A DNA stretch of 39,655 nucleotides from a virus. The stretch lies in the UHGV virus genome UHGV-0213320. One strand, given 5' to 3'. Shown here piece by piece: positions 5,790-33,842 of the stretch. The position numbers were made by a program, and so were the translations under genes. Positions within the stretch are counted from its first letter, which is position 1, and every line of letters begins with the position of its first letter. The notes under the pieces were generated by a model. That model searched no databases. It was given only the letters and a program-made list of their open reading frames with translations, and was not told where the DNA came from.

Positions 5790-6215
5790 GTGGTGATTGT
5801 GGCTTCCAGATTAACAGATAAACAGAAAAAGAAAATAATAGCTGATTATGTGGAATATGGAAGCTATCGTGCCACAGCAAAAAAATTCGGTGTTTCAGAT
5901 AACACAGTAAAAAACATATGCGCAAAAAGTGCAGATATTGCGCAGAAGTGCGCACAAAAAAAAGAACAGAACACAGCCGATATGTTGGCATATATGGATT
6001 CCAGGAAAGAACAAGCACAGGGTATTATTGATAAATATCTTGAAAAGCTGGCGGACCCGCATAAACTAGAAAATGCTACTATCTCCCAAATTGCAACAGC
6101 GATGGGGATAGTAGTTGATAAATTTATGGATAATACAAAAAAAGGAGAAAATGCAGAAGGAGTAACCATTTTGAATGATATACCAAAGCCGGGAAAGGGG
6201 AATGGTGATGCATGA
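5790..6215 (+). CDS. terS: Terminase small subunit
   Basis: 141 aa, N-terminal HTH-like segment (YRATAKKFGVSDNTVKN). Immediately upstream of and overlapping terL. GTG start (5790 or 5799) after AAGGGG. Confidence 0.65.
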   Translation: MVIVASRLTDKQKKKIIADYVEYGSYRATAKKFGVSDNTVKNICAKSADIAQKCAQKKEQNTADMLAYMDSRKEQAQGIIDKYLEKLADPHKLENATISQIATAMGIVVDKFMDNTKKGENAEGVTILNDIPKPGKGNGDA

Positions 6216-7465
6216 GTGACATAATAAATCTGACTGATGTAATCGCCCCTTCCTTTTATGACGTTCACTGGGATATCCTGGACGGAAAGCATACATATTA
6301 TGACCTCTATGGCGGGCGCGGCTCCACGAAGTCCTCTTTCATGTCCGTGGAAATTATACTGGGGATGATGCAGGACGAAAAGGACGGAGTTTTCAGCAAT
6401 TCGGCAGTATTTCGTAAGGTAGGAAACACCTTACGGGAATCTGTATTTGAACAAATTGCATGGGCGATTGATGCACTGGGGGCCAATGACCTGTGGGCGT
6501 CCAGTGTTAGCCCCATGCAGTATGTGTATAAACCCACTGGCCAGAAAATCATCTTCCGAGGACTGGACAAGGCGAAGAAAACGAAATCTATCAAGACGAG
6601 CCGAGGATATTTTAAATACCTCTGGTTCGAGGAATTGGACGAGTTTGCCGGGATTGAGGAAATCAGAACAGTGCAGCAGTCCGTCCTTCGTGGCGGGAGT
6701 AAATTTGTGGTGTTCAAGTCCTTCAACCCTCCAATCAGCCGGAGCAACTGGGCGAATGTGTACGTCAACGAGCCAAGAGAGGACAGCTGCCGGCACAAGA
6801 GCGACTATACCACAGTGCCGGAGGAATGGCTGGGAGAACAGTTTATAGCAGACGCCGAACATCTGAAAGCCACCAATCCAAGGGCATATGAACATGAATA
6901 CATGGGCAATCCCGTTGGACTGGGAACGAATATTTTTGATATGTTGGATGTGCGTACAATAACAGACGAAGAAATCAGCCGCATGGAGCGTATCTATCAA
7001 GGGCAAGACTGGGGCTGGTATCCTGACCCGAAAGCCTTTATCCGGGCGGCGTACATCCATAGCACTGAAACAATCTATCTGTTGGACGAGTTGGGCGGCT
7101 GTAAAATCCGTAACAGCCAAATGGCAGAGGATATAAAGGAAAAGGGCTATGATGATTATGAAATCCGCTGCGGCGCTGATGAACAGGAAAGCATAGTTGA
7201 CTTTAGGGATGCTGGACTTCCGGCCAGACAGGCCAATGTTGGGCCGGGTAGTGTGAAATATACCTTTGAATGGCTTCAGTGCCGGACAATCGTTATAGAC
7301 CCGGCCAGAACGCCGAGAGCATACAAGGAAATCATAGAGTATGAACATGAAGTAGACAGCAATGGGGAAGTGATTGCAGACTATCCAGACCACAATAACC
7401 ACTGGATAGACGCTCTGCGGTATGCTACAAGCCCACTGTCAATGAGGAGAGGAAACAGCGCATGA
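6212..7465 (+). CDS. terL: Terminase large subunit
   Basis: Walker A motif YGGRGSTKS, 417 aa, packaging-module position. Higher local GC. Confidence 0.9.
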   Translation: MSDIINLTDVIAPSFYDVHWDILDGKHTYYDLYGGRGSTKSSFMSVEIILGMMQDEKDGVFSNSAVFRKVGNTLRESVFEQIAWAIDALGANDLWASSVSPMQYVYKPTGQKIIFRGLDKAKKTKSIKTSRGYFKYLWFEELDEFAGIEEIRTVQQSVLRGGSKFVVFKSFNPPISRSNWANVYVNEPREDSCRHKSDYTTVPEEWLGEQFIADAEHLKATNPRAYEHEYMGNPVGLGTNIFDMLDVRTITDEEISRMERIYQGQDWGWYPDPKAFIRAAYIHSTETIYLLDELGGCKIRNSQMAEDIKEKGYDDYEIRCGADEQESIVDFRDAGLPARQANVGPGSVKYTFEWLQCRTIVIDPARTPRAYKEIIEYEHEVDSNGEVIADYPDHNNHWIDALRYATSPLSMRRGNSA

Positions 7466-7654: not shown

Positions 7655-9088
7655 ATGGGACTAATAACATGGGCTAAAAAGGTGATAGGAATGATATTTA
7701 AGCGACAAGCGGAAGAAGATTTTAATGTTGAATCGGTGGTATCCCCGGAGATGGAAAGCAAGATTACAGAGTGCGCCAATATCTACCGGGGTACTCCCTA
7801 TTGGGTGAATGCTGACGATAACGTTAAGACAATCAATTTTGCAAAGGCTATTTGTTCAGATACGGCCCGGCTTGCTACCTTGGCAATCGGAATACAGATT
7901 GATGGGAGCGCGCGGGCGGCGTGGCTTCAGGAGCAGATTGATAAGATATATTTCCAGATTAGGCACTGGGTAGAATATGGTATGGCCTACGGCACAATCA
8001 TACTTAAGCCAAACGGTAAGGGACTGGACATATTCACACCTATGGATTTTATCATTACGGATTGCGATAATGAAGGTATCTATGGGATTGTGTTCAAGGA
8101 TGGCTACAGCGAAAATAATAAGTATTACACCCGATTTGAGTATCATCGGTTTGTCGAAGTCAAGGATGGGGAAAACATCTATTACCCATATTACATATCC
8201 AATAGAGCCTATGTGTCTCACTCTGCAAAAAGCGTGGGGGACCCAATAGCATTAAATAGGACTAAGTGGTCCGACTTGCTTCCAGAGACACCACCTATAC
8301 TCAAAGCTAACAATGATAAAATAGACGGACCCATGTTTGGCATACTCCGTACTCCACAGGCTAACAATGTGGATATTTCATCACCTTTGGGATTGCCAAT
8401 GTTCACAGAAGCAATCGAGGAATTAAAAGACCTTGATGTAGCATACAGCCGAAATGTTGGTGAAATATTTGACAGTGAGAAAATTATATTAGCAGACGAC
8501 CAGCTGATGTTTGGAAGCGGCACAAACATTAAGGGGCGCTATGCTGGTATGAGCAACGAAAAGCTTCCTCATTATGTAAAAAATGTATTTGGAAATGGAA
8601 CGGAATCTTTCTATCAGGAGATTGTTCCATCATTGAATACTGATATCAGAATTACTGGAATAAATAACCTACTCTCGTTTGTGGGATTTAAGTGTGGATA
8701 TTCCAACGGGTACTTTGTGCTTGATGAAAAAACAGGAATGGTCACAGCCACACAGGTAGAGGCTGACGACAGGAGAACCATACAGCTAATCAAGGATGTA
8801 CGTGACAAGCTGGAAAGTTGTCTTGACGGGGCAATATATGCTCTCAATGTATATGCTGACCTGTATGGGCTTGCTCCGGCAGGGGCCTACGAAATAACAT
8901 ATGATTTTGGAGACATTACATATAACCGAGAGGAGGACCGGGCAAGATGGTGGCAGTATGTTGTGCAGGGGAAGGTGCCGGCCTGGATATATTTTCAGAA
9001 ATTTGAAGGGTTATCCGAAGAAGATGCAAAGGCTATGGTGCAGGAAGCGCAACCTAAAGAACGTCCGGGATTTTTTGGGGAGGAATAG
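7655..9088 (+). CDS. Portal protein
   Basis: 477 aa, directly after terL. Size and position typical of siphovirus portals. Confidence 0.75.
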   Translation: MGLITWAKKVIGMIFKRQAEEDFNVESVVSPEMESKITECANIYRGTPYWVNADDNVKTINFAKAICSDTARLATLAIGIQIDGSARAAWLQEQIDKIYFQIRHWVEYGMAYGTIILKPNGKGLDIFTPMDFIITDCDNEGIYGIVFKDGYSENNKYYTRFEYHRFVEVKDGENIYYPYYISNRAYVSHSAKSVGDPIALNRTKWSDLLPETPPILKANNDKIDGPMFGILRTPQANNVDISSPLGLPMFTEAIEELKDLDVAYSRNVGEIFDSEKIILADDQLMFGSGTNIKGRYAGMSNEKLPHYVKNVFGNGTESFYQEIVPSLNTDIRITGINNLLSFVGFKCGYSNGYFVLDEKTGMVTATQVEADDRRTIQLIKDVRDKLESCLDGAIYALNVYADLYGLAPAGAYEITYDFGDITYNREEDRARWWQYVVQGKVPAWIYFQKFEGLSEEDAKAMVQEAQPKERPGFFGEE

Positions 9089-9090
9089 AT

Positions 9091-9897
9091 ATGGAAACAT
9101 TAAGATTCAAAGTAGAGAAACAACATATTGAATATATTTCTCCGCATCCATATCTTGTGGCAGGAACCGAATCGAACATAGAATACTTTATCTACATATA
9201 TCAAGGATTATCGGATATCAATGAAATAGTGTATCCCATGCTTAATGCTGGACCCACTGCTCTACCATATCAGCCCTACCAGTCCAGTACCGCAACCATC
9301 ACCCTGACGGCGCCGTTACGCGGTATCGGGGATGTACGGGACAGGATAATGTGCAGGGATGGCGTGTGGGGTGTGGAAAGGCAATTCGTGTCATTGACTT
9401 TTGACGGGAGTGAGAATTGGATTGCCTCAAACACTGGATACGCGAACAAGAATCGTTTTTGGTTTGGGGGCTATGAAAATGTTATAAGACATGAGACTAA
9501 TTCAAATGTAGGAATAAAAATATTATGTGACAAACTTCCGGGAGAATCCAGTGGAGACACTTATAGGTGTATTGATGGCATATCATCCAATATGGTTGGA
9601 CGGATTATGGTATATTTAGATGATTTTAGTTCAGGTGATGTGTCAGCTTTTAAGACTTATTTATCAACACATCCCATATCGGCCATCTTTGAACTTGCCA
9701 CCCCCACCTGGGAACCCCTCCCCTCCGCGACCCAATCCGCCCTGAACGCACTTACCACCTACACCGGCACCACCCATGTGACCATCACCGCAGGAGGGCC
9801 GGAACCGGATGTGGCGGTGGAGTACGTGCAGGATACAAACGTTGTGATTGCTGAGTTAAAAAAACTGATAGAAGGGATGCAGAATGTTAAGCCCTAA
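9091..9897 (+). CDS. Hypothetical protein between portal and gp7-like gene (possible insertion)
   Basis: 268 aa, beta-rich with a T/P-rich segment. Not the usual portal-gp7 arrangement. Confidence 0.4.
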   Translation: METLRFKVEKQHIEYISPHPYLVAGTESNIEYFIYIYQGLSDINEIVYPMLNAGPTALPYQPYQSSTATITLTAPLRGIGDVRDRIMCRDGVWGVERQFVSLTFDGSENWIASNTGYANKNRFWFGGYENVIRHETNSNVGIKILCDKLPGESSGDTYRCIDGISSNMVGRIMVYLDDFSSGDVSAFKTYLSTHPISAIFELATPTWEPLPSATQSALNALTTYTGTTHVTITAGGPEPDVAVEYVQDTNVVIAELKKLIEGMQNVKP

Positions 9898-11101
9898 TTA
9901 TCTACAGCATATAGCAGATGGAAGTGAAGAAATAGCCTCCCAGCTCCATACATACATCATACGACAGATAATAGACCGCATGATGATACGTATTGGGCGC
10001 GGAGATGATTATTTGCTTACATCCTCTGACAGATGGCGCATTCAGATATTACAGGATGCAGGATATCTGCTGGAGGATATTACGGTAGAGTTATCCAAAG
10101 TCACTAAACGGCAGGAAAAAGAAATCAAGGCTGCTATGGAAGAAGCGGGAATCAAGGCACTGGAATACGACCACAGAATATATGAAGCTGCTGGTTTATC
10201 TCCAATTCCTCTTACTCAATCCCCGCAGCTTATTCGTCTGATGGAACGTAACATGAATGCTACGATGGGAGAATGGCAGAATTATACCAGAACAACCGCA
10301 GAAGCCGCACAGAGGATTTTTATTCATGAATGCGACAATGCTTACCATCTTGTATCTTCAGGGGCTGTATCATACACACAGGCTGTCAAAGAGGCGGTTG
10401 ATAATGTAGTATCTGGTGGAGTGATAGTACACTATCCTTCGGGCCATAAAGATACCATAGAAACTGCTACAGCACGCGCGGTACGAACCGGAGTAGCCCA
10501 GGCTACAGGTGATATCTCGATTAAGCGCATGGAGGAAATGAACTGGGATATCATACTGGTGTCAGCACACATCGGAGCCAGAACTGGGGACGGGGGACAG
10601 AATCCAGGAAATCATTTATGGTGGCAAGGGCAATTTTACAGCCGGACCGGAAAAAATAAGCGCTTCCCTCCATTTTCACAGACTGGATTCGGAACGGGTG
10701 AGGGATTATGTGGGTGGAACTGCCGCCATAGTTTTGGAAGCGGGGATGGGGTAAACAATCCGTACAAAGACATCCAGACCGCAGACAACTATAAGGTTGA
10801 GCAATTGGAGAAGCGGCAGAGAACGCTTGAACGGCGCATTAGAAAGACCAAACGTGAAGTTATGGGAATGCAAGAGGCAGTAGATAAGTGCAAGGATGAA
10901 CCGGCTAAATTTGAAATGCAGCTTGAACTTGACCGTAAATCATATCTGTTACAGCGTCAGAATAAAGCATACAACGAGTTTTGTAAAACGAACGACTTGC
11001 GCACCCAGCAGGAACGGTTGCAGATTGCAAAATGGAACCGGGAGCAGGCCGCAAAGGCCAGGGGAGCAGCGAGGCGGTATCAAAATGCGAAAGGGGAATA
11101 A
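9884..11101 (+). CDS. Head morphogenesis protein, SPP1 gp7 / Mu gpF family
   Basis: 405 aa. C-terminal GWNCRHSF matches the H-NCRC signature of the gp7/MuF family, followed by a coiled-coil tail. Located after the portal. Confidence 0.75.
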   Translation: MLSPNYLQHIADGSEEIASQLHTYIIRQIIDRMMIRIGRGDDYLLTSSDRWRIQILQDAGYLLEDITVELSKVTKRQEKEIKAAMEEAGIKALEYDHRIYEAAGLSPIPLTQSPQLIRLMERNMNATMGEWQNYTRTTAEAAQRIFIHECDNAYHLVSSGAVSYTQAVKEAVDNVVSGGVIVHYPSGHKDTIETATARAVRTGVAQATGDISIKRMEEMNWDIILVSAHIGARTGDGGQNPGNHLWWQGQFYSRTGKNKRFPPFSQTGFGTGEGLCGWNCRHSFGSGDGVNNPYKDIQTADNYKVEQLEKRQRTLERRIRKTKREVMGMQEAVDKCKDEPAKFEMQLELDRKSYLLQRQNKAYNEFCKTNDLRTQQERLQIAKWNREQAAKARGAARRYQNAKGE

Positions 11102-11103
11102 AT

Positions 11104-11487
11104 TTGAATAGATGGAAACCATATAACCCTAACCCAGTTCGTAATCAGCGTGTAGGCGACTGTGCCATACGTGCAATCTGCAAAGCAACTGGACAGGATT
11201 GGGAAACCTCATTTGCTGGTGTTATGGTGGTGGCGTGCGAGAAGTCAGATATGCCGTCAGCTAACAGCGTGTGGGGGACATATCTCAGGCGCAACGGATT
11301 CCGGCGAAACATTATACCAAACGAATATCCAGAAGATTATACTGTGGAAGAATTTGCGTCAGACCACCAGAACGGAGTGTTTGTTCTTGGGCTTGATGGT
11401 CATGTGGTAACGGTTGTAGACGGATTTTACTGGGACACATGGGACAGCGGGCAGGAGATACCAATATACTACTGGGAAAGGCGATAA
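11104..11487 (+). CDS. Putative papain-like (C39-like) cysteine peptidase domain protein
   Basis: TTG start after AGGGG RBS. Motif NQRVGDCAIRAI (Gln...Cys) and GLDGHVVTVVDG (Gly-His) resemble the catalytic Cys/His dyad of the papain/C39 fold. Confidence 0.4.
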   Translation: MNRWKPYNPNPVRNQRVGDCAIRAICKATGQDWETSFAGVMVVACEKSDMPSANSVWGTYLRRNGFRRNIIPNEYPEDYTVEEFASDHQNGVFVLGLDGHVVTVVDGFYWDTWDSGQEIPIYYWERR

Positions 11488-12088: not shown

Positions 12089-12559
12089 ATGCCGCAACCA
12101 TTTATCAATCCAAACTATCTTAATGCATATCCAAACGCATACCCGTATCAGCCGCAGATGCAACCACCTATGGACCGATTGCAGCAGCTACAAGCACCAT
12201 ATCAGATGTCGCAACAAACACAAGTTCCGCAGGTTCCTCAGACGAATCAGGGAATATTATGGGTGCAGGGTGAGGCCGGGGCAAAGTCGTATTTAGTAGC
12301 GCCCAGCACATCTATATTGCTGATGGACAGCGAAAATGAGTATTTTTACATTAAGACGACCGATGCGGCAGGGATGCCAACACTTCGCACTTTTGAATAT
12401 AAAGAGATTGTTAATGGACAGAAAAAGGAATCTGTACCGACTGAAAATCTTGACGAAAAATATGTTACCAGAAACGAGTATCAGGATTTAAAGGCAAAAT
12501 ATGATGAATTGTACGGCCTTTTAGAATCCAGCACAGCGCCAAGCGGAAAGGGGAAATAA
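12089..12559 (+). CDS. Q/P/Y-rich low-complexity protein (spore-coat-like composition)
   Basis: 156 aa. N-terminus PQPFINPNYLNAYPNAYPYQPQMQPP. Strong RBS GGAGGGG. Confidence 0.5.
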   Translation: MPQPFINPNYLNAYPNAYPYQPQMQPPMDRLQQLQAPYQMSQQTQVPQVPQTNQGILWVQGEAGAKSYLVAPSTSILLMDSENEYFYIKTTDAAGMPTLRTFEYKEIVNGQKKESVPTENLDEKYVTRNEYQDLKAKYDELYGLLESSTAPSGKGK

Positions 12560-14259: not shown

Positions 14260-14799
14260 ATGAGTTATAAGTTAATGCAGAATATCCATGAAGAACTGGA
14301 TAAGATTGCGGAAAAGGGCCTGAACACCAGCAATCTTGAAACCGCATATAAATTGATTGACATGTGGAAAGACATGGAGAATGTAGAGTACTGGAAGTGC
14401 AAAGAAGAGTACTACAATCAGGTAATGGACGAAATGGACGGCGGAGAATACAGCGAAGCACGCAACAAGCGTGACAGCATCGGACGTTATAGTCGTGCTG
14501 ATGGAATGTATCAGGGATATGATAATGATAGTTCGTACCGTGGAACACGTGGGAAACATTACGTCAGAGGACATTACAGCCGCGCAAATGGTCCAGCCTA
14601 TGACGATTACATGAACCAGAAACAGAGTTATCGAAGCGGTGGGAAAGATGAAGATTGCAAGCGGCGTATGCTTGCGGCACTTGAACATCACATGGATGAA
14701 TTGACCGAGGAAATAGGAGAAATGAGCCGTGACGCTGAGTGCAGAGAGGAAAGGGAGGTCATGAAACGCTATATAGAAAAACTGCGTAACATGATGTAA
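14260..14799 (+). CDS. Hypothetical charged protein
   Basis: 179 aa, RBS GGAGGTAAGG, ends at a bidirectional terminator. Confidence 0.5.
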   Translation: MSYKLMQNIHEELDKIAEKGLNTSNLETAYKLIDMWKDMENVEYWKCKEEYYNQVMDEMDGGEYSEARNKRDSIGRYSRADGMYQGYDNDSSYRGTRGKHYVRGHYSRANGPAYDDYMNQKQSYRSGGKDEDCKRRMLAALEHHMDELTEEIGEMSRDAECREEREVMKRYIEKLRNMM

Positions 14800-14802
14800 T
14801 CT

Positions 14803-14830
14803 AAAAGGCAGGATTAACTTCCTGCCTTTT
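14803..14830. terminator. Bidirectional rho-independent terminator (AAAAGGCAGGA-ttaac-TTCCTGCCTTTTT)
   Basis: Near-perfect 10-11 bp GC-containing stem with an A-run on one side and a T-run on the other, between convergent genes. Confidence 0.7.
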
Positions 14831-15791
14831 TATGATGAATTTGTACCGGACGCGTCAAAGCGTCTAGAATATCCCATCCTCTGTATATGCGGCTATGTAC
14901 CCTTGTATAAGGAACTCCGTATTTTCTGCACCAATTTGCTAGAGAGTTTGTAACGCCGTTTATTGTGAACATTAAATTCCTATTTGTATTATTTCCTTGT
15001 TGAACATCTGTAGCCAATCTACAATTTGATGGCTCATATCCCTTGGCATTATCAATTCTGTCAATAGATAAATTTTCTTCATACCCATTATTTAAAGCCC
15101 ATTTTTTAAATTTCTTATACTCTTTCCATTCTTGGCAAACAGCTATTCCTTTTTCTCCATACAAATAGTACGACTTGTGTTTTGGGCTATAGCAACGTAA
15201 CATCATATCATGCCATATACGATAAATCCGAGTATTTGTATCTCCGTGAGTAGTATTTCTTTCTATGGCAACCTCCCTGTTATAACAGCCACATGATTTT
15301 GTATGCCCACTAATTAAGTTTTGTTGATGAACAATTACCGAGTTTCCACAGTTGCATTTACATTCCCATAAGGTTTGTTTTCCGTTGCTTTTTCCGGCAT
15401 ACCGTATGGCTACTAAACGCCCAAAACGCTTCCCTGAAATATCATCCACTTTGGGAGTTCTGCAATTTTTACAGCATTTCTCGTAAGGAGATTTTAATGC
15501 GAACGCACTTGTTATAAATCGCGTTCCGCAGTCGCATGCACATTCGTATTGAACGTATGATTTTTTCATAGGAAGTTTTTTTAATATAGTCAATTTCCCT
15601 ATTTTTCTTCCTGATAGATTTTCCTTGTTTATGCAGCCGCATGATTTTGTTTTTCCGTCACGCAGATTCCCAGAATAGATTTTTCGCTCTGTTCCACATT
15701 GGCAGCGACATAAATAATACTGATTACCAAGGTATTCTAGGACTGTCCACATTCCAAACTTTTGACCTGTTAAATCAATTCTTTTTGTCAT
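14814..15791 (-). CDS. HNH(HNH_3)-like homing-endonuclease-type protein with three N-terminal zinc-ribbon repeats
   Basis: Start at the second Met (MTKRIDL) after RBS GGAAGGGG. Three repeats of L[ST]G[QRK][KR][FI]G.L.[VI]L...(Y/W).C.C.CG...........SCGC. C-terminal IYRIWHDMMLRC...YGEKGIAVCQEW...LSIDRIDNAKGYEPSNCRLAT..QQGNN matches the HNH_3/AP2-like module. Opposite strand to the structural genes. Confidence 0.7.
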   Translation of the reverse strand: MTKRIDLTGQKFGMWTVLEYLGNQYYLCRCQCGTERKIYSGNLRDGKTKSCGCINKENLSGRKIGKLTILKKLPMKKSYVQYECACDCGTRFITSAFALKSPYEKCCKNCRTPKVDDISGKRFGRLVAIRYAGKSNGKQTLWECKCNCGNSVIVHQQNLISGHTKSCGCYNREVAIERNTTHGDTNTRIYRIWHDMMLRCYSPKHKSYYLYGEKGIAVCQEWKEYKKFKKWALNNGYEENLSIDRIDNAKGYEPSNCRLATDVQQGNNTNRNLMFTINGVTNSLANWCRKYGVPYTRVHSRIYRGWDILDALTRPVQIHHKKAGS

Positions 15792-15864
15792 TAAGTAACC
15801 CCTTCCTATATTCGATATTATACCATAAGAACGAGAAACAATCAATTGGTATATAGTTAGAAAG

Positions 15865-16222: not shown

Positions 16223-16511
16223 CTATATTTGAACCTCCCTCCTATAGCACATGTCCTTAACAGAAACAGGTCCTAGCTCATAGAGTAAACGGCCTGTAGG
16301 TTGAAAAGCGGATGCAATTTCCGGCATGTGCATTCCTTCTAAAGGCTATCCTCCTCCCGTAATGGAGATAGAAAAAACTTGTCAGTTATGACCTGGACGA
16401 AACTGAAAAATGATACGGCATTGTTTTGGTGGGATATCGGCGGGCTGACAGCATTTCAGAGTACATATGCGGCGCAAAAAGGCGTGACGAGGAGTTTTCA
16501 AGAAATGCAAT

Positions 16512-16584
16512 CGGGAAATAGCTCAGTTGGTAGAGCAGCAGCCTTATAAGCTGTGTGTCAGAGGTTCGATTCCTCTTTTCCCGA
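16512..16584 (+). tRNA. tRNA-Ile (anticodon UAU, AUA decoder)
   Basis: Manual fold: acceptor CGGGAAA/TTTCCCG, D-arm GCTC-AGTTGGTA-GAGC, anticodon arm GCAGC-CTTATAA-GCTGT (anticodon TAT), T-arm AGAGG-TTCGATT-CCTCT, discriminator A. No encoded CCA. Confidence 0.75.
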
Positions 16585-16733
16585 TGTAGTCGGGTCGCTC
16601 CCGGATGATGTGAGAGCACGCAGAATGCCTCACAGAAAATGACAATGCCTGCTGAAAACTACTGCGATAGTTCCAGGGACTAGGACACGGGACTGAAATT
16701 CGCAGTGTGACAATCTAAGCAGGAACTGCATCA

Positions 16734-16822
16734 TGAGGATTCGCCAAGCGGTTAAGGCACCGGGTTTTGACCCCGGCAAAGAAGGAACACTCTTTACGCT
16801 GGTTCAAATCCAGCATCCTCAG
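16734..16822 (+). tRNA. tRNA-Gln(UUG)-like with anomalous 21-nt variable arm
   Basis: Acceptor TGAGGAT/ATCCTCA (U1:A72, G2:C71), discriminator G73. D-arm UCGCCAAGCGGUUAAGGCA is near-identical to canonical bacterial tRNA-Gln. Anticodon arm CCGGG-TTTTGAC-CCCGG (anticodon UUG), T-arm GCTGG-TTCAAAT-CCAGC. Between the anticodon and T arms there is a 21-nt stem-loop (CAAAGAAGGAACACTCTTTAC) instead of a 4-5 nt variable loop. Confidence 0.6.
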
Positions 16823-16913
16823 TTTTGGACACGCCAAGTCCTACAAAATGGCAAACCGTTGGTGGACGGTTACACACCTACAAATAACCTAATAACGGAA
16901 AAGGAGAATCATC

Positions 16914-17537
16914 ATGAAAACCGAAGAATTAAAAGCACAAGGATTGACAGAAGAACAGATATCTTTTGTTATGGCTGAAAATGGGAAAGACCTCAAAAAG
17001 TTGCAGAAAGAAAACGACAATCTGAGCGCAGACCGGGATACCTGGAAAGAAAAAGCAGAAGCAGCAGAAACAACGCTGAAAGGATTTGAAGGGGTTGACC
17101 TGGAAACGATGCAGAGGGAAATATCTGACTGGAAACAGAAAGCTACGGAAGCCGAGAAAAAAGCCCAGGAGCAGCTTTACGCGCGTGACTTTTCGGACGC
17201 TCTGAAAACGGAATTTGAGGGTATTAAGTTTTCCAGCGAAGCGGCTAAACGTGCAATTATGGCAGAAGTAAAAGAGGCCGGTTTAAAACTGAAAGATGGT
17301 AAAATTCTGGGGCTGAATGACCTTTTGTCTCAAATGAAAGAAAAAGATGCTTCGGCTTTTGTTGATGATGCACAGCAGCAGGTACAGCAGAACATGGCGA
17401 GGTTTACCGCACCAGTAGGTAAGCAGAATACGCCAGGAACTATGACACGAAAGGATATTGAAGCGATTAAAGACCCGTCTGAGCGCCAGTCTGCAATCGC
17501 CAGTAACCTACATTTATTCGGTAAAGGAGAACAGTAA
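16914..17537 (+). CDS. Scaffolding protein
   Basis: 207 aa, highly charged coiled-coil composition, immediately upstream of the major capsid gene. RBS AAAAGGAGA. Confidence 0.7.
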   Translation: MKTEELKAQGLTEEQISFVMAENGKDLKKLQKENDNLSADRDTWKEKAEAAETTLKGFEGVDLETMQREISDWKQKATEAEKKAQEQLYARDFSDALKTEFEGIKFSSEAAKRAIMAEVKEAGLKLKDGKILGLNDLLSQMKEKDASAFVDDAQQQVQQNMARFTAPVGKQNTPGTMTRKDIEAIKDPSERQSAIASNLHLFGKGEQ

Positions 17538-18709
17538 TGGCAGCAAAAGCCAATTTAATTACAAGTGCAGACATACAGGTTACGGCTCGCGAAATTGATT
17601 TTGTAACACGCTTTGAAAGGAACTGGCAGCACCTCCGGGATATCCTGGGGATTATGCGTCCTATTAAGAAAACACCGGGCGCGGTGCTGAAAAGCAAATA
17701 TGCAGAAGGAACTTTACAGAGCGGTGCTGTAGGCGAGGGAGAGGAAATCCCTTACAGCAAATTTACAGTAAAGGAAAAGACATATGCGGAAATGACCATA
17801 GAGAAGTATGCAAAGGCCGTTTCCATTGAAGCAATTAAAGACCACGGCTATGAAAATGCCGTCCAGATGACAGACGACGAATTTTTGTTCCAGCTTCAAT
17901 CGGATGTAACAGAACGATTCTATACATATCTGAATACCGGTACACTTACCGGAACAGAAACCACTTTCCAGATGGCCCTTGCTATGGCAAAAGGAATGGT
18001 AGAAAACAAATTCAAACAGATGCACCGGAATGTTACAGGTGTGGTTGGGTTTGCGAATATTCTGGATGTATACCAGTACTTGGGGGCTGCTGAAATCACT
18101 GTGCAGAATCAGTTTGGTTTCCAGTATCTCAAAGATTTCATGGGATTCAATACAATCTTCCTGCTGTCCGACTCGGAAATTGCAAGAGGAAAAATAATAG
18201 CTACACCAGTGGAAAACATTGTAATGTACTATGTTGACCCAAATGAGAGCGATTTTGCACGGGCGGGTCTGGTATATACCACTGGAGCCGGGGAGACAAA
18301 CCTTATCGGATTCCATACTCAGGGGAACTACAATACAGCTGTTTCTGAAGCATTTGCAATCATGGGTTTGACCTTGTTTGCAGAATATATTGACGGAATC
18401 GCGGTTGTTGATATTACTGATAATCCCGTTCTTGGAACACTGACGGTAACTTCTTCGGCCGGAAGCGCATCAGGAAACACAAAATTAACCGTTGAACCTC
18501 CCCTCGAAACAGGACACATGTACAAGTACAAAGTGGCAGCTGATTCCGCTCCAGAAGTGAAATATGGTCAGAATGTAAAGACGTGGACAGCATGGGACGG
18601 TAAATCTGATATCAAGGCAACGACCGGGAATCATATCACAGTAGTTGAGTGTGACAATACCTATAAGGCGTTGAAATCTGGAAATGACGATGTAACGTCT
18701 CACTCTTAA
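17537..18709 (+). CDS. Major capsid protein
   Basis: 390 aa directly after the scaffold gene (ATG overlaps the scaffold stop). Size and position. Confidence 0.7.
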   Translation: MAAKANLITSADIQVTAREIDFVTRFERNWQHLRDILGIMRPIKKTPGAVLKSKYAEGTLQSGAVGEGEEIPYSKFTVKEKTYAEMTIEKYAKAVSIEAIKDHGYENAVQMTDDEFLFQLQSDVTERFYTYLNTGTLTGTETTFQMALAMAKGMVENKFKQMHRNVTGVVGFANILDVYQYLGAAEITVQNQFGFQYLKDFMGFNTIFLLSDSEIARGKIIATPVENIVMYYVDPNESDFARAGLVYTTGAGETNLIGFHTQGNYNTAVSEAFAIMGLTLFAEYIDGIAVVDITDNPVLGTLTVTSSAGSASGNTKLTVEPPLETGHMYKYKVAADSAPEVKYGQNVKTWTAWDGKSDIKATTGNHITVVECDNTYKALKSGNDDVTSHS

Positions 18710-32605: not shown

Positions 32606-33676
32606 TCACATAATAAACTTTTCAAAGTGTTTATTGATTTTTTTATTCTGCCGGACGGATTCCAGGTCAATCACATTCCTGTATACAGTTTTCATGATAT
32701 TGTCACTGGCCCATCCTCCCCGCTGCAATATATATTGGTCTGGTACACCTATGGCGTGCATAATGGATGCAGCATAATGCCGGAGGTCGTGAAAGCGAAA
32801 ATGCGGTACATCAATCTTTTTAAGCACCCGCCCAAATCTATGTGTGATATAATCCGGGTTCATGTCAACCAGCTTCCCTTTTTTGCCAGATATCCGGTCA
32901 ATTACAAAGGCTGGCATTTCTACGTCCCGTGTGCTGTCATCCGTCTTTGGCTGCTTGATATACCATTGATTGTCTGGTCCCTTGACCATATTGTCTCTTA
33001 CATGGATAATACGACCTTCTACATTTTTATCAGTAAGGGCGCTTATCTCTCCGCGTCTGAGTGGGCCAAATGCAGCCAGTAACACGGCTATCTCTAAATC
33101 TGTACCTTTGATAGCGTCTAACAGCTTTTTAATATCATTGTCATTGGGGCAGTATAAATCGGGGCGTTTTTTCTGTGGAAGCTTTACCTTTAAGGTTAAA
33201 TCAGGCGCAAACATTTCCAATGATGCGGATAACAGGCCATAGGCATTTCTAACTGTCTTGGGAGACAGTTGTTTTCCTGCCAAATCACTTACCCATATCT
33301 GTACAGATGGATTAGATAGCTCTGAGAGCCGTTTACGCCCAAATACGCCGTCAAAATACTGCCTTTGCATACCAACATACCCTCTAAGCGTAGAAGGGCT
33401 TAAAACTCCTTTTTTGACGCTCAAATAACGTTCGATAGCTTGACTCACTGTTATATCTTCGTCCTCTTCCTCTTCCGGTACGTTGTATTGCTCTATAGGC
33501 TTGTCCTTCATGTCTAATTTCCATCTGGTAGCCATCTCCTTTGCCTCTTTACGTGATGGAGCAACAAAGCTTTTGTAATGCCGTTTTCCTTTATCATCTG
33601 TATACAGATACACTTGCACTCTGACATTTCCAGACGGCAGTACTCCTTTTTTCTTTTTCGGGGCTTTTGTAGTCAT
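32606..33676 (-). CDS. int: Tyrosine integrase (phage integrase family)
   Basis: Start MTTKAPKKKKG after RBS GGAGGAAAG. N-terminal SAM-like/arm domain, catalytic RRGEISAL (Arg), HRFGRVL / HDLRHYAAS (HxxR), GGWASDNIMKTVYRNV (Tyr). 356 aa. Confidence 0.9.
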   Translation of the reverse strand: MTTKAPKKKKGVLPSGNVRVQVYLYTDDKGKRHYKSFVAPSRKEAKEMATRWKLDMKDKPIEQYNVPEEEEDEDITVSQAIERYLSVKKGVLSPSTLRGYVGMQRQYFDGVFGRKRLSELSNPSVQIWVSDLAGKQLSPKTVRNAYGLLSASLEMFAPDLTLKVKLPQKKRPDLYCPNDNDIKKLLDAIKGTDLEIAVLLAAFGPLRRGEISALTDKNVEGRIIHVRDNMVKGPDNQWYIKQPKTDDSTRDVEMPAFVIDRISGKKGKLVDMNPDYITHRFGRVLKKIDVPHFRFHDLRHYAASIMHAIGVPDQYILQRGGWASDNIMKTVYRNVIDLESVRQNKKINKHFEKFIM

Positions 33677-33842
33677 TTTTCTTTCCTCCTTCAATTGATT
33701 TTCCTGAAAATAGGTATAAAAAATACAGCTCCGCAAATATCTTGCAAAGCCGCCCCGAAGATGGTACAATATAAGTGCGAATTATAGTGCATATCTTCGG
33801 GTATGTAGGCCGGTTCCTGTTGGCGCAGGGGCCGGTTTTATT

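Follow-up and report, generated by a model that had tools for sequence, protein, structure and literature searches.

The 39,655-nucleotide (nt) virus genome UHGV-0213320, referred to below in its whole length as the window, is a temperate siphovirus-type genome that carries a gene for a glutamine transfer RNA (tRNA-Gln) with anticodon UUG and a long, class-II-like variable region. The split between class I tRNAs, which have a short variable loop, and class II tRNAs (Leu, Ser, bacterial Tyr and Sec), which have a long arm in its place, is among the most stable rules of tRNA structure, and the few exceptions, such as the nev-tRNAs and the allo-tRNAs, have each drawn attention. On the strength of its sequence and that of its relatives, the gene is likely to encode a functional phage tRNA-Gln(UUG) of a recurrent class-II-like subtype, reading CAA and probably CAG codons. 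Its elements, all on the plus strand, are the following.

16734..16822, plus strand: tRNA-Gln(UUG) gene, 89 nt (ARAGORN, Rfam RF00005, family covariation)
16760-16764 with 16772-16776, plus strand: anticodon stem CCGGG/CCCGG
16767..16769, plus strand: anticodon TTG (UUG), inside the loop UUUUGAC (16765-16771)
16777..16797, plus strand: class-II-like variable region of 21 nt, CAAAGAAGGAACACUCUUUAC = CAAAGAAGGAACACTCTTTAC, delimited by alignment to E. coli and normal phage tRNA-Gln
16778..16795, plus strand: extra-arm hairpin, AAAGA (16778-16782) or AAGGA (16782-16786) with TCTTT (16791-16795)

The Rfam tRNA model RF00005 aligned end to end over all 89 nt (55.6 bits, E value 1.7e-9, gathering score 29), with an 18-nt insertion in the variable region only and all remaining parts of the model aligned. 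ARAGORN assigned isotype Gln with anticodon ttg at position 34 on the plus strand, and neither tool returned another molecule or another anticodon, which settles a check that an earlier note on this sequence had proposed. The acceptor stem, UGAGGAU/AUCCUCA, has seven pairs, beginning with U1-A72, G2-C71 and A3-U70, and is followed by U8 and C9; the discriminator base is G73. The D arm, GCCAAGCGGUUAAGGC (written out as GCCA-AGCGGUUA-AGGC), has a 3-bp stem, and the T arm, GCUGG-UUCAAAU-CCAGC, a stem of five pairs. All conserved tertiary nucleotides are present (U8, A14, G15, G18G19, U33, the GUUC of the T arm and C48), and the 7/5 acceptor/T configuration is backed by covariation. No CCA is encoded, and the 3′ trailer reads UUUUGG. 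The acceptor features (U1:A72, G2:C71, G73), the D arm and the UUUUGAC loop are as the earlier note had given them, with sequence, ARAGORN and Rfam in agreement. In folding predictions, the five-arm cloverleaf of the window tRNA with its arm has a free energy 0.9 kcal/mol higher than the minimum; for the related type A tRNA introduced below, it is the minimum-energy fold.

As the earlier note had also recognized, a long arm is atypical for a glutamine tRNA, and the remaining features of the molecule are glutamine-type. When the 89 nt were compared by BLAST with 5426 complete E. coli genomes, an annotated tRNA-Gln was matched in 5424, over query positions 8-45 (D and anticodon arms), with 89.5% identity and an end at the start of the insertion. 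Among ~50,700 GenBank phage records, the annotated matches were all tRNA-Gln and covered the 5′ part only; no annotated record contained a long-arm tRNA-Gln, and the sole record matching the full gene was MT838775, an unannotated human-faecal phage scaffold. Matches to tRNA-Gln genes end at position 43-45, where the insertion begins.

The identity set for GlnRS/GatCAB comprises a weak 1-72 pair (U1-A72), G2-C71, G3-C70, G10, U35, G36, A37, U38 and G73 (PMC5766645). Members of this set found in the window tRNA are U1-A72, G2-C71, G10, U35, G36, A37 and G73, and the wobble base is U34. Leu, Ser, Tyr or Sec identity is not what we found, the anticodon being UUG and U1-A72 occurring together with G73. 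Leu and Tyr tRNAs need A73, and Ser tRNAs typically have G1-C72; judged by these bases, U1-A72 with G73 would be incompatible with Leu and Tyr and atypical for Ser. As to the arm itself, the two synthetases concerned, GlnRS and GluRS, both belong to class I, whose members approach the tRNA with its variable region facing the solvent. The contacts listed for GlnRS are G2, G3, G10, positions 34-38, A72 and G73, none of them in the variable region (PMC5766645). Given this geometry and these contacts, the extra arm should be compatible with charging.

Annotated E. coli tRNA-Gln and normal-length phage tRNA-Gln have the canonical 5-nt variable loop CAUUC, and where class I tRNAs have a short loop of 4-5 nt the window tRNA-Gln has 21 nt. 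The earlier note had described a 21-nt insert; the long variable region does lie where that note placed it, but 21 nt is the length of the whole region, and the net insertion amounts to ~16 nt, at about 16779-16794, between A45 and the final loop bases. The last base of the region, C16797, corresponds to C48, the partner of G15. As for the origin of the insert, the window contains no duplicated or complementary copy of it elsewhere, the tRNA itself being the sole match. The extra-arm hairpin is predicted within the full-length fold, in two equally good registers (AAAGA/UCUUU at -1.6 and AAGGA/UCUUU at -1.5 kcal/mol). Thus, the 5-bp AAAGA/UCUUU stem that the earlier note had proposed can form, but it is weak, with about 10% of same-base shuffles doing equally well or better.

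The long-arm gene has many relatives. A pattern made of the anticodon arm and the insert core matched 25 IMG/VR contigs, with a long tRNA-Gln called by ARAGORN in 24 of them; the anticodon arm alone matched 31 viral contigs, 30 with a tRNA-Gln of 84-91 nt and one with a normal 75-nt gene; and a pattern for the structure, combining the D arm of tRNA-Gln, UUUGA, a long spacing and the T loop, detected the long-arm architecture in 80 IMG/VR contigs. The anticodon arm also had 41 matches among metagenome contigs, most of them in assembly records of a sort that human-gut metagenomes use, and ARAGORN called 37 of these tRNA-Gln (35 long and two normal). The like genes in related phages that the earlier note had suggested looking for therefore exist, the architecture being present in more than 100 independent contigs.

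Two related types, A and B, dominate the set. Type A tRNAs are 84 nt long, have the variable region GAGAGGAACACUCAUUC and adjoin a tRNA with anticodon CAU, sometimes also tRNA-Tyr; type B tRNAs, which include that of the window, are 89-91 nt long, have the variable region CAGAGAAGGAACGCUCUUUAC or variants of it and adjoin tRNA-Ile(UAU). Among 185,579 species representatives (bacterial and archaeal, one genome per species), the type A/B pattern yielded one real tRNA, on a 44,420-nt phage-sized contig binned as an uncultured Dorea sp., where the HNH, zinc-ribbon and scaffold genes beside the tRNA are 99-100% identical to those of the window. Outside types A and B, phage contigs of 30-200 kb yielded a dozen or more other lineages of long-arm tRNA-Gln(UUG), with sequence-unrelated variable regions of 13-26 nt (e.g., AGCGAAAGCU, AGCAGUAUGUGCU, GGUGGAAACACU, ACAAUCUGUGUUGAUUGU and GGGCUGGUUUCACCACCC). 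In all, there are at least 14 different extra-arm sequences. Some of the long-arm bodies are nearer to normal-arm phage tRNA-Gln (identity 0.94-0.96) than to other long-arm lineages, which points to the arm having been gained more than once.

An alignment of 16 representatives produced a consensus cloverleaf with double compensatory changes in 12 of 20 pairs and a single broken cell in the table of pairs. Compensatory covariation was seen in all four canonical stems; U1-A72 is invariant across the 16 representatives, and A3-U70 is not conserved. Judged from these aligned sequences, the pattern is that of a tRNA under purifying selection and would exclude a pseudogene or an artefact. The long-arm subtype is so far seen almost only on phage or phage-like contigs, and in the literature on long-arm tRNA-Gln or long-arm phage tRNAs we found no description of a long-arm tRNA-Gln. 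Taken together, the subtype looks like a conserved, apparently undescribed tRNA design and not a defect.

How well the arm itself is supported as a helix depends on the level at which it is viewed. In type B, the purine-rich 5′ half pairs with UCUUU in more than one register: contig L317 fits only the second (AAGGA), contig L034 only the first or a third. RNAalifold, run on a MAFFT alignment, made no consensus call for the extra arm, since arms of different lengths fall in three registers. Since picking the best hairpin of each arm for a hand-padded structural alignment would make the pair counts circular, the variable regions of 14 lineages were each subjected to a shuffle test instead. Hairpins of single lineages are marginal compared with same-base shuffles (p 0.02-0.3), and the 14 lineages combined show an excess of hairpins over shuffles, with a Fisher p of ~2e-6 that is approximate, the lineages being not fully independent. 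Every long-arm variable region ends in C at the C48 position, and every one can form a hairpin of 3-7 bp; arms that have the flanks CA...UUAC in common show swapped pairs (AGAG/CUCU, AGCA/UGCU and AGC/GCU). A class II variable region, longer than 10 nt and with a stem-loop between positions 45 and 48, is therefore what the family has; the stem-loop is weakly supported by the window sequence on its own and significantly so by the family as a whole.

The other tRNAs at these loci are mostly of normal size. Where a long-arm tRNA-Gln is present, bystander tRNAs of class I type have standard length in 11/12 cases for Lys, 22/23 for Met, 13/14 for Thr, 10/11 for Trp and 7/7 for Pro; tRNA-Ile is long in 4/13. 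We consider long arms on class-I-type tRNAs to be a low-frequency, recurrent habit of phage tRNAs, among which the tRNA-Gln of types A and B stands out for its success and stability in gut phages of Lachnospiraceae type.

In the IMG/VR contigs we also noted many long-arm tRNAs of 83-98 nt with other non-class-II anticodons (Asn, Thr, Trp, Cys, Lys, Ile and Met). Examples are those of L065, L066 and L097 (Asn GUU, 87 nt), L105, L122 and L054 (Thr UGU), L090, L117 and L128 (Trp CCA), L051 and L147 (Cys GCA), and L057 and L134 (Ile UAU, 93-95 nt). They often have a class-II-like D arm, GCCAAGYGGYYGAMGGC, and some may be Tyr- or Ser-type bodies with a shifted anticodon. Long-arm tRNA-Gln also sits in ordinary tRNA arrays of large phages. 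A 13.5-kb tRNA-array locus on the 344-kb IMG/VR contig L106 encodes standard and long-arm versions of several tRNAs side by side (Gln UUG, 74 and 86 nt; Lys UUU, 76 and 87 nt; Met CAU, 73/77 and 86 nt; Ile GAU, 74 and 88 nt), together with long Glu, Thr and Ile-UAU genes, and many of its arms have GAAA-type loops.

Some further tRNAs of the related phages deserve mention. Type A phages, namely L015 (at 9856-9945) and also L031, L033, L037 and L326, carry a tRNA-Tyr(GUA) that at 90 nt exceeds the length of ordinary bacterial tRNA-Tyr. Its anticodon is at position 38, and its D arm, GCAAC...GUUGC, is unusual in having what look like 5 bp. In L030, an 82-nt match to the tRNA model (1884-1965; 29.5 bits, just at the threshold) lies directly upstream of the long-arm tRNA-Gln without an ARAGORN call and could be a degenerate or atypical second tRNA. 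The type A phages L038 (3862-3936) and L333 (293-367) have a 75-nt tRNA that ARAGORN calls Gln(CUG), with a body that is not tRNA-Gln-like (G1, GCUCAGU D loop), which makes its isotype uncertain.

In the window, the tRNA-Gln gene is located in the leader of the head operon. The features around it, and further genes of this temperate siphovirus-type genome, are these; endolysin and anti-repressor genes are also present.

6212-7465: terminase
7655-9088: portal
9884-11101: minor head protein
16246..16332, plus strand: RAGATH-21 RNA motif (Rfam RF03097, 79.7 bits), left border of the cassette
16333..16822, plus strand: accessory cassette of 490 nt (spacer, tRNA-Ile, spacer, tRNA-Gln), absent from contig L303
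16511..16585, plus strand: tRNA-Ile(UAU) of standard length (ARAGORN; Rfam, 73.8 bits), first gene of the cassette
16827..16891, plus strand: GP20-b RNA motif (Rfam RF03003, 39.4 bits), in the leader of the scaffold gene
16914..17537, plus strand: head scaffolding protein (PHROGs phrog_194)
17537-18709, plus strand: major head protein (PHROGs phrog_544), directly after the scaffold gene
32606-33769, minus strand: integrase

The association of the tRNA-Gln with a phage tRNA-Ile, asserted by the earlier note, is thus borne out. The local order is a small zinc-ribbon open reading frame (ORF), RAGATH-21, tRNA-Ile, tRNA-Gln, 4 nt, GP20-b and the scaffold gene, and the succession of RAGATH-21, tRNAs, GP20-b and scaffold gene is kept in type A and type B relatives. 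The spacing of 4 nt between tRNA-Gln and GP20-b recurs in L004, L014 and L034. All type A/B contigs have a scaffold homologue ~90-310 nt downstream of the tRNA-Gln, with amino acid identities to the window scaffold protein ranging from 99% to 60%.

A near-identical phage contig, L303 (terminase 95% and scaffold 94% identical to those of the window), has no tRNA. There, RAGATH-21 (12387-12473) and GP20-b (12479-12542) are 5 nt apart upstream of the scaffold gene. Nucleotide alignment of the two genomes shows near-identity up to 16332 of the window, a window-only stretch from 16333 to 16822, and shared sequence again from TTTTGGAC. This presence/absence alignment and the positions of the motifs identify the two tRNAs as an accessory cassette in the head-operon leader, inserted exactly between RAGATH-21 and GP20-b and with its right edge at the 3′ end of the tRNA-Gln. 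RAGATH-21 and GP20-b may form one leader unit.

A gene for an HNH endonuclease (14814-15845, minus strand) lies inside the head module on the opposite strand; RAGATH-21 follows 0.4 kb and the tRNA cassette 0.7 kb downstream of it. It occurs only in the closest relatives of the window (L004, L013, L023, L045 and L325) and not across types A and B; we therefore rejected a link between this gene and the tRNA, and the gene is probably an independent mobile insertion. In L306, a contig without tRNAs that comes from a relative of the window phage, a reverse-transcriptase gene (RVT_1; 14594-15736) is inserted between the portal and minor head protein genes.

Turning to decoding, glutamine codons account for 4% of all codons and for 5% of those in the scaffold and capsid genes. 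CAG predominates over CAA, by 279 to 104 in the phage as a whole and by 27 to 3 in the scaffold and capsid genes. With CAA the minor Gln codon, we rejected codon compensation as the reason for the tRNA-Gln. It suits tRNA-Ile(UAU) better, AUA accounting for 39% of the Ile codons of the phage. tRNA-Ile(UAU) is rare in bacteria as a reader of AUA, the usual reader being a lysidine-modified CAU tRNA. Type A relatives have a CAU tRNA in the place of tRNA-Ile(UAU), possibly a tRNA-Ile2.

For a view on what the codons mean, the window proteins were aligned with those of four relatives without this tRNA, over 7375 positions and at 67% identity. Glutamine stood opposite CAA in 59% and opposite CAG in 63% of these comparisons, followed by K, E, R and D, the usual substitutes for Gln; Ser and Leu together reached 4-5%, similar to their share at Glu and Lys codons. 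An alignment of the portal protein with 64 homologues at 67-74% identity gave the same picture for CAA and CAG. Nothing in these alignments suggests a meaning of Gln codons other than Gln, and large-scale mischarging would accordingly harm the phage. A role of the tRNA in stop-codon readthrough was considered as well: three same-frame adjacent ORF pairs on the plus strand are split by a single TAA (at 11485, 12557 and 29841), which are probably coincidence and, listed without a further search, gave no evidence for it.

The life of the tRNA might be pictured as follows. From their position in the scaffold/major-capsid leader, the cassette tRNAs would be cotranscribed with the late head genes, and RNase P and RNase Z would free the tRNA-Gln from this transcript; CCA would be added post-transcriptionally, since none is encoded, and the host system would charge the tRNA with glutamine. 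The extra arm may then set the phage tRNA apart from host tRNA-Gln in the very region that tRNA-directed defence nucleases attack, so that the phage tRNA could survive an attack on host tRNA-Gln and glutamine decoding would be kept up during late gene expression. Escape from tRNA-directed host attack is our leading guess for the arm, made by analogy. Phage T5 tRNA-Tyr resists via a distinctive variable loop (PMC13096335, PMC11555353), and phage tRNAs escape anticodon nucleases by changes in the loop (PMC10264068). A broader proposal is tentative and rather unlikely: the arm would be an immunity tag, with phages repeatedly adding a class-II-like arm to tRNA-Gln, and sporadically to other class-I-type tRNAs such as Ile-UAU, Asn, Thr, Lys and Trp, to escape a factor, from the host or from a competitor, that recognizes the compact variable/elbow region of cellular tRNAs.

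Several findings weigh against a functional tRNA with a purposeful arm. The window tRNA departs from the identity set of E. coli GlnRS in having A-U at 3-70 and C at 38; the codon usage calls for no extra CAA decoding; close relatives manage without the cassette; and the window hairpin is weak (-1.6 to -1.7 kcal/mol; p ~0.10 against shuffles) and ambiguous in its register. We know of no nuclease targeting tRNA-Gln in these hosts, although no search for one was made. Moreover, a scan of phage contigs for normal-length tRNA-Gln gave at least 120 matches, and at the loci found in this way, among the matches listed, 11/287 bystander class I tRNAs (3.8%) were 82 nt or longer, so the trait may reflect a general permissiveness of phage tRNAs instead of a function specific to Gln.

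This last point leads to the main rival of the defence-escape guess, which we regard as possible if somewhat unlikely: the tRNA is functional, and the arm is a neutral, tolerated expansion that arises repeatedly in fast-evolving phage tRNAs and drifts. Insertions could be harmless here because the variable region of tRNA-Gln faces away from the class I synthetase and the D arm is already class-II-like. Neutrality would fit the wide variation of the arms in sequence and length (13-26 nt, stems of 3-7 bp) with no motif in common outside types A and B, the repeated gain implied by bodies up to 0.94-0.96 identical to normal-arm phage tRNA-Gln, the ~3.8% of bystander class I tRNAs that are long too, and the marginal stability of the window hairpin. 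It fits less well with the retention of the arm across type A/B phages whose scaffold proteins differ by 40%, or with the dominance of the long form among tRNA-Gln genes having this anticodon arm (30/31 viral and 35/37 metagenomic). Drift would also not lead one to expect variable regions that are jointly more hairpin-prone than shuffles, as expected under selection for a helix, nor the restriction of the type A/B pattern to 1/185,579 species representatives, and there to a phage-sized contig.

The position of the gene suggests another explanation, which we consider improbable, namely that the gene serves mainly as a processing signal instead of a decoder: the tRNA fold would recruit RNase P and RNase Z to cut the long late transcript, and this cut would set where the GP20-b/scaffold mRNA begins at its 5′ end. 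In type B phages, exactly 4 nt separate the 3′ end of the tRNA from GP20-b downstream. This 3′ end coincides with the right edge of the cassette, which is flanked by two structured RNA motifs within an operon leader. Such a role would nevertheless leave unexplained the strict conservation across lineages of the UUG anticodon, the anticodon loop, U1-A72 and G73, as well as the extra arm. Relatives without the cassette, in which RAGATH-21 abuts GP20-b, evidently manage, and long-arm tRNA-Gln is present in the ordinary arrays of large phages too.

Less probable still is a dual Gln/Ser identity, in which the long arm together with G73, G2-C71 and C11-G24 would make the tRNA a substrate of SerRS, so that Gln codons would be read partly as Ser in late infection. 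G73 and a long variable arm are both described as essential for SerRS, and in E. coli Ser was inserted by allo-tRNAs that have G73 (PMC5389517). The window tRNA does have G73, G2-C71, A3-U70 and C11-G24. Yet its first pair is U1-A72 and not G1-C72, its arm has a large loop on a stem of no more than 3-5 bp, A73 is found in four other long-arm lineages, and A3-U70 varies within the family. Mischarging or recoding, which the earlier note had raised, finds no support in the relatives that lack the tRNA either, where CAA and CAG align with Gln and not with Ser or Leu (4-5% for the two together, as for other codons), and Gln codons are not avoided in the phage. Finally, a decayed pseudogene, an assembly artefact or an attachment-site remnant, readings that the earlier note had in part anticipated and that are prompted by the unusual length, the lack of an encoded CCA and a temperate phage with integrases, is effectively refuted by covariation and recurrence and has a chance close to nil, given an Infernal score well above threshold, intact invariant nucleotides, compensatory changes in four stems with essentially no broken pairs, identical or variant copies in more than 100 contigs from independent assemblies and, as regards a recombination element, an integrase 16 kb away and a scaffold-leader position of the tRNA in the head operon that is kept in all related phages.

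Comparison with known tRNAs helps to place the functional, class-II-like tRNA-Gln that we favour. With canonical bacterial tRNA-Gln(UUG), as in E. coli RefSeq genomes, it shares U1-A72, G2-C71, G10, G73, the D arm GCCAAGCGGUAAGGC, the anticodon arm, U33-UUG-A37, the T arm and the 7/5 configuration; it differs from the E. coli molecule in the 21-nt hairpin variable region (instead of CAUUC), A3-U70 (instead of G3-C70), C38 (instead of U38) and the missing CCA. Bacterial class II tRNAs (Leu, Ser, Tyr and Sec) have in common with it the long arm, which is inserted between positions 45 and 48 and which C48 closes, as well as the three-pair D stem of GCC...GGC type. However, the anticodon and identity features of the window tRNA are glutamine-type, its arm has a stem of 3-5 bp and a loop of 4-8 nt, and it lacks both the A73 of Leu and Tyr and the G1-C72 of Ser.

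Among the known exceptions to the class rule, nev-tRNAs are leucine-type bodies with Gly or Ile anticodons that are charged with Leu. They resemble the window tRNA in combining a long arm with an anticodon foreign to Leu, Ser and Tyr. nev-tRNAs are class II tRNAs with an anticodon for neither Leu nor Ser and are conserved specifically among nematodes (PMC3333845). In the window tRNA, by contrast, which is of phage and not of nematode origin, the body agrees with the anticodon (Gln), and the arm alone is foreign. Allo-tRNAs and selC*-like tRNAs share the irregular bacterial or phage origin, the long arm and a non-Ser anticodon, and G73 in combination with such an arm is what raises the question of serylation (PMC5389517). 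The acceptor/T configuration of allo-tRNAs is 8/4 or 9/3, and their D stem is long and Sec-like (PMC5389517), whereas the window tRNA is 7/5 by covariation and has a Gln-type D arm with a 3-bp stem.

A functional parallel would be the defence-evading phage tRNAs, such as T5 tRNA-Tyr, which acts against retron-Eco7 or Septu, and anticodon-loop variants; in these systems the variable loop has been documented both as a place of cleavage and as a determinant of resistance (PMC11555353, PMC13096335, PMC10264068). What would be shared is a phage copy that differs from the host tRNA in the region attacked by nucleases. The documented cases involve tRNA-Tyr, tRNA-Lys and others with small sequence differences, and these phages are not known to be connected with any defence aimed at tRNA-Gln.

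A class-II-like tRNA-Gln that is conserved in many human-gut phages and has been reinvented in several lineages would be a new exception to the class I/class II rule. It would offer a natural test case for how GlnRS, GluRS, GatCAB and SerRS read or ignore a variable arm, and for the variable region as a battleground between phage tRNAs and tRNA-cleaving defence. It also raises the question of how annotation pipelines treat long "class I" tRNAs, and the molecule provides a ready scaffold for engineering tagged or orthogonal tRNAs. Should the arm be neutral, the finding would amount to a modest curiosity on the structural tolerance of phage tRNAs; should it be an immunity tag, it would represent a general, so far undescribed structural route of tRNA-based counter-defence.

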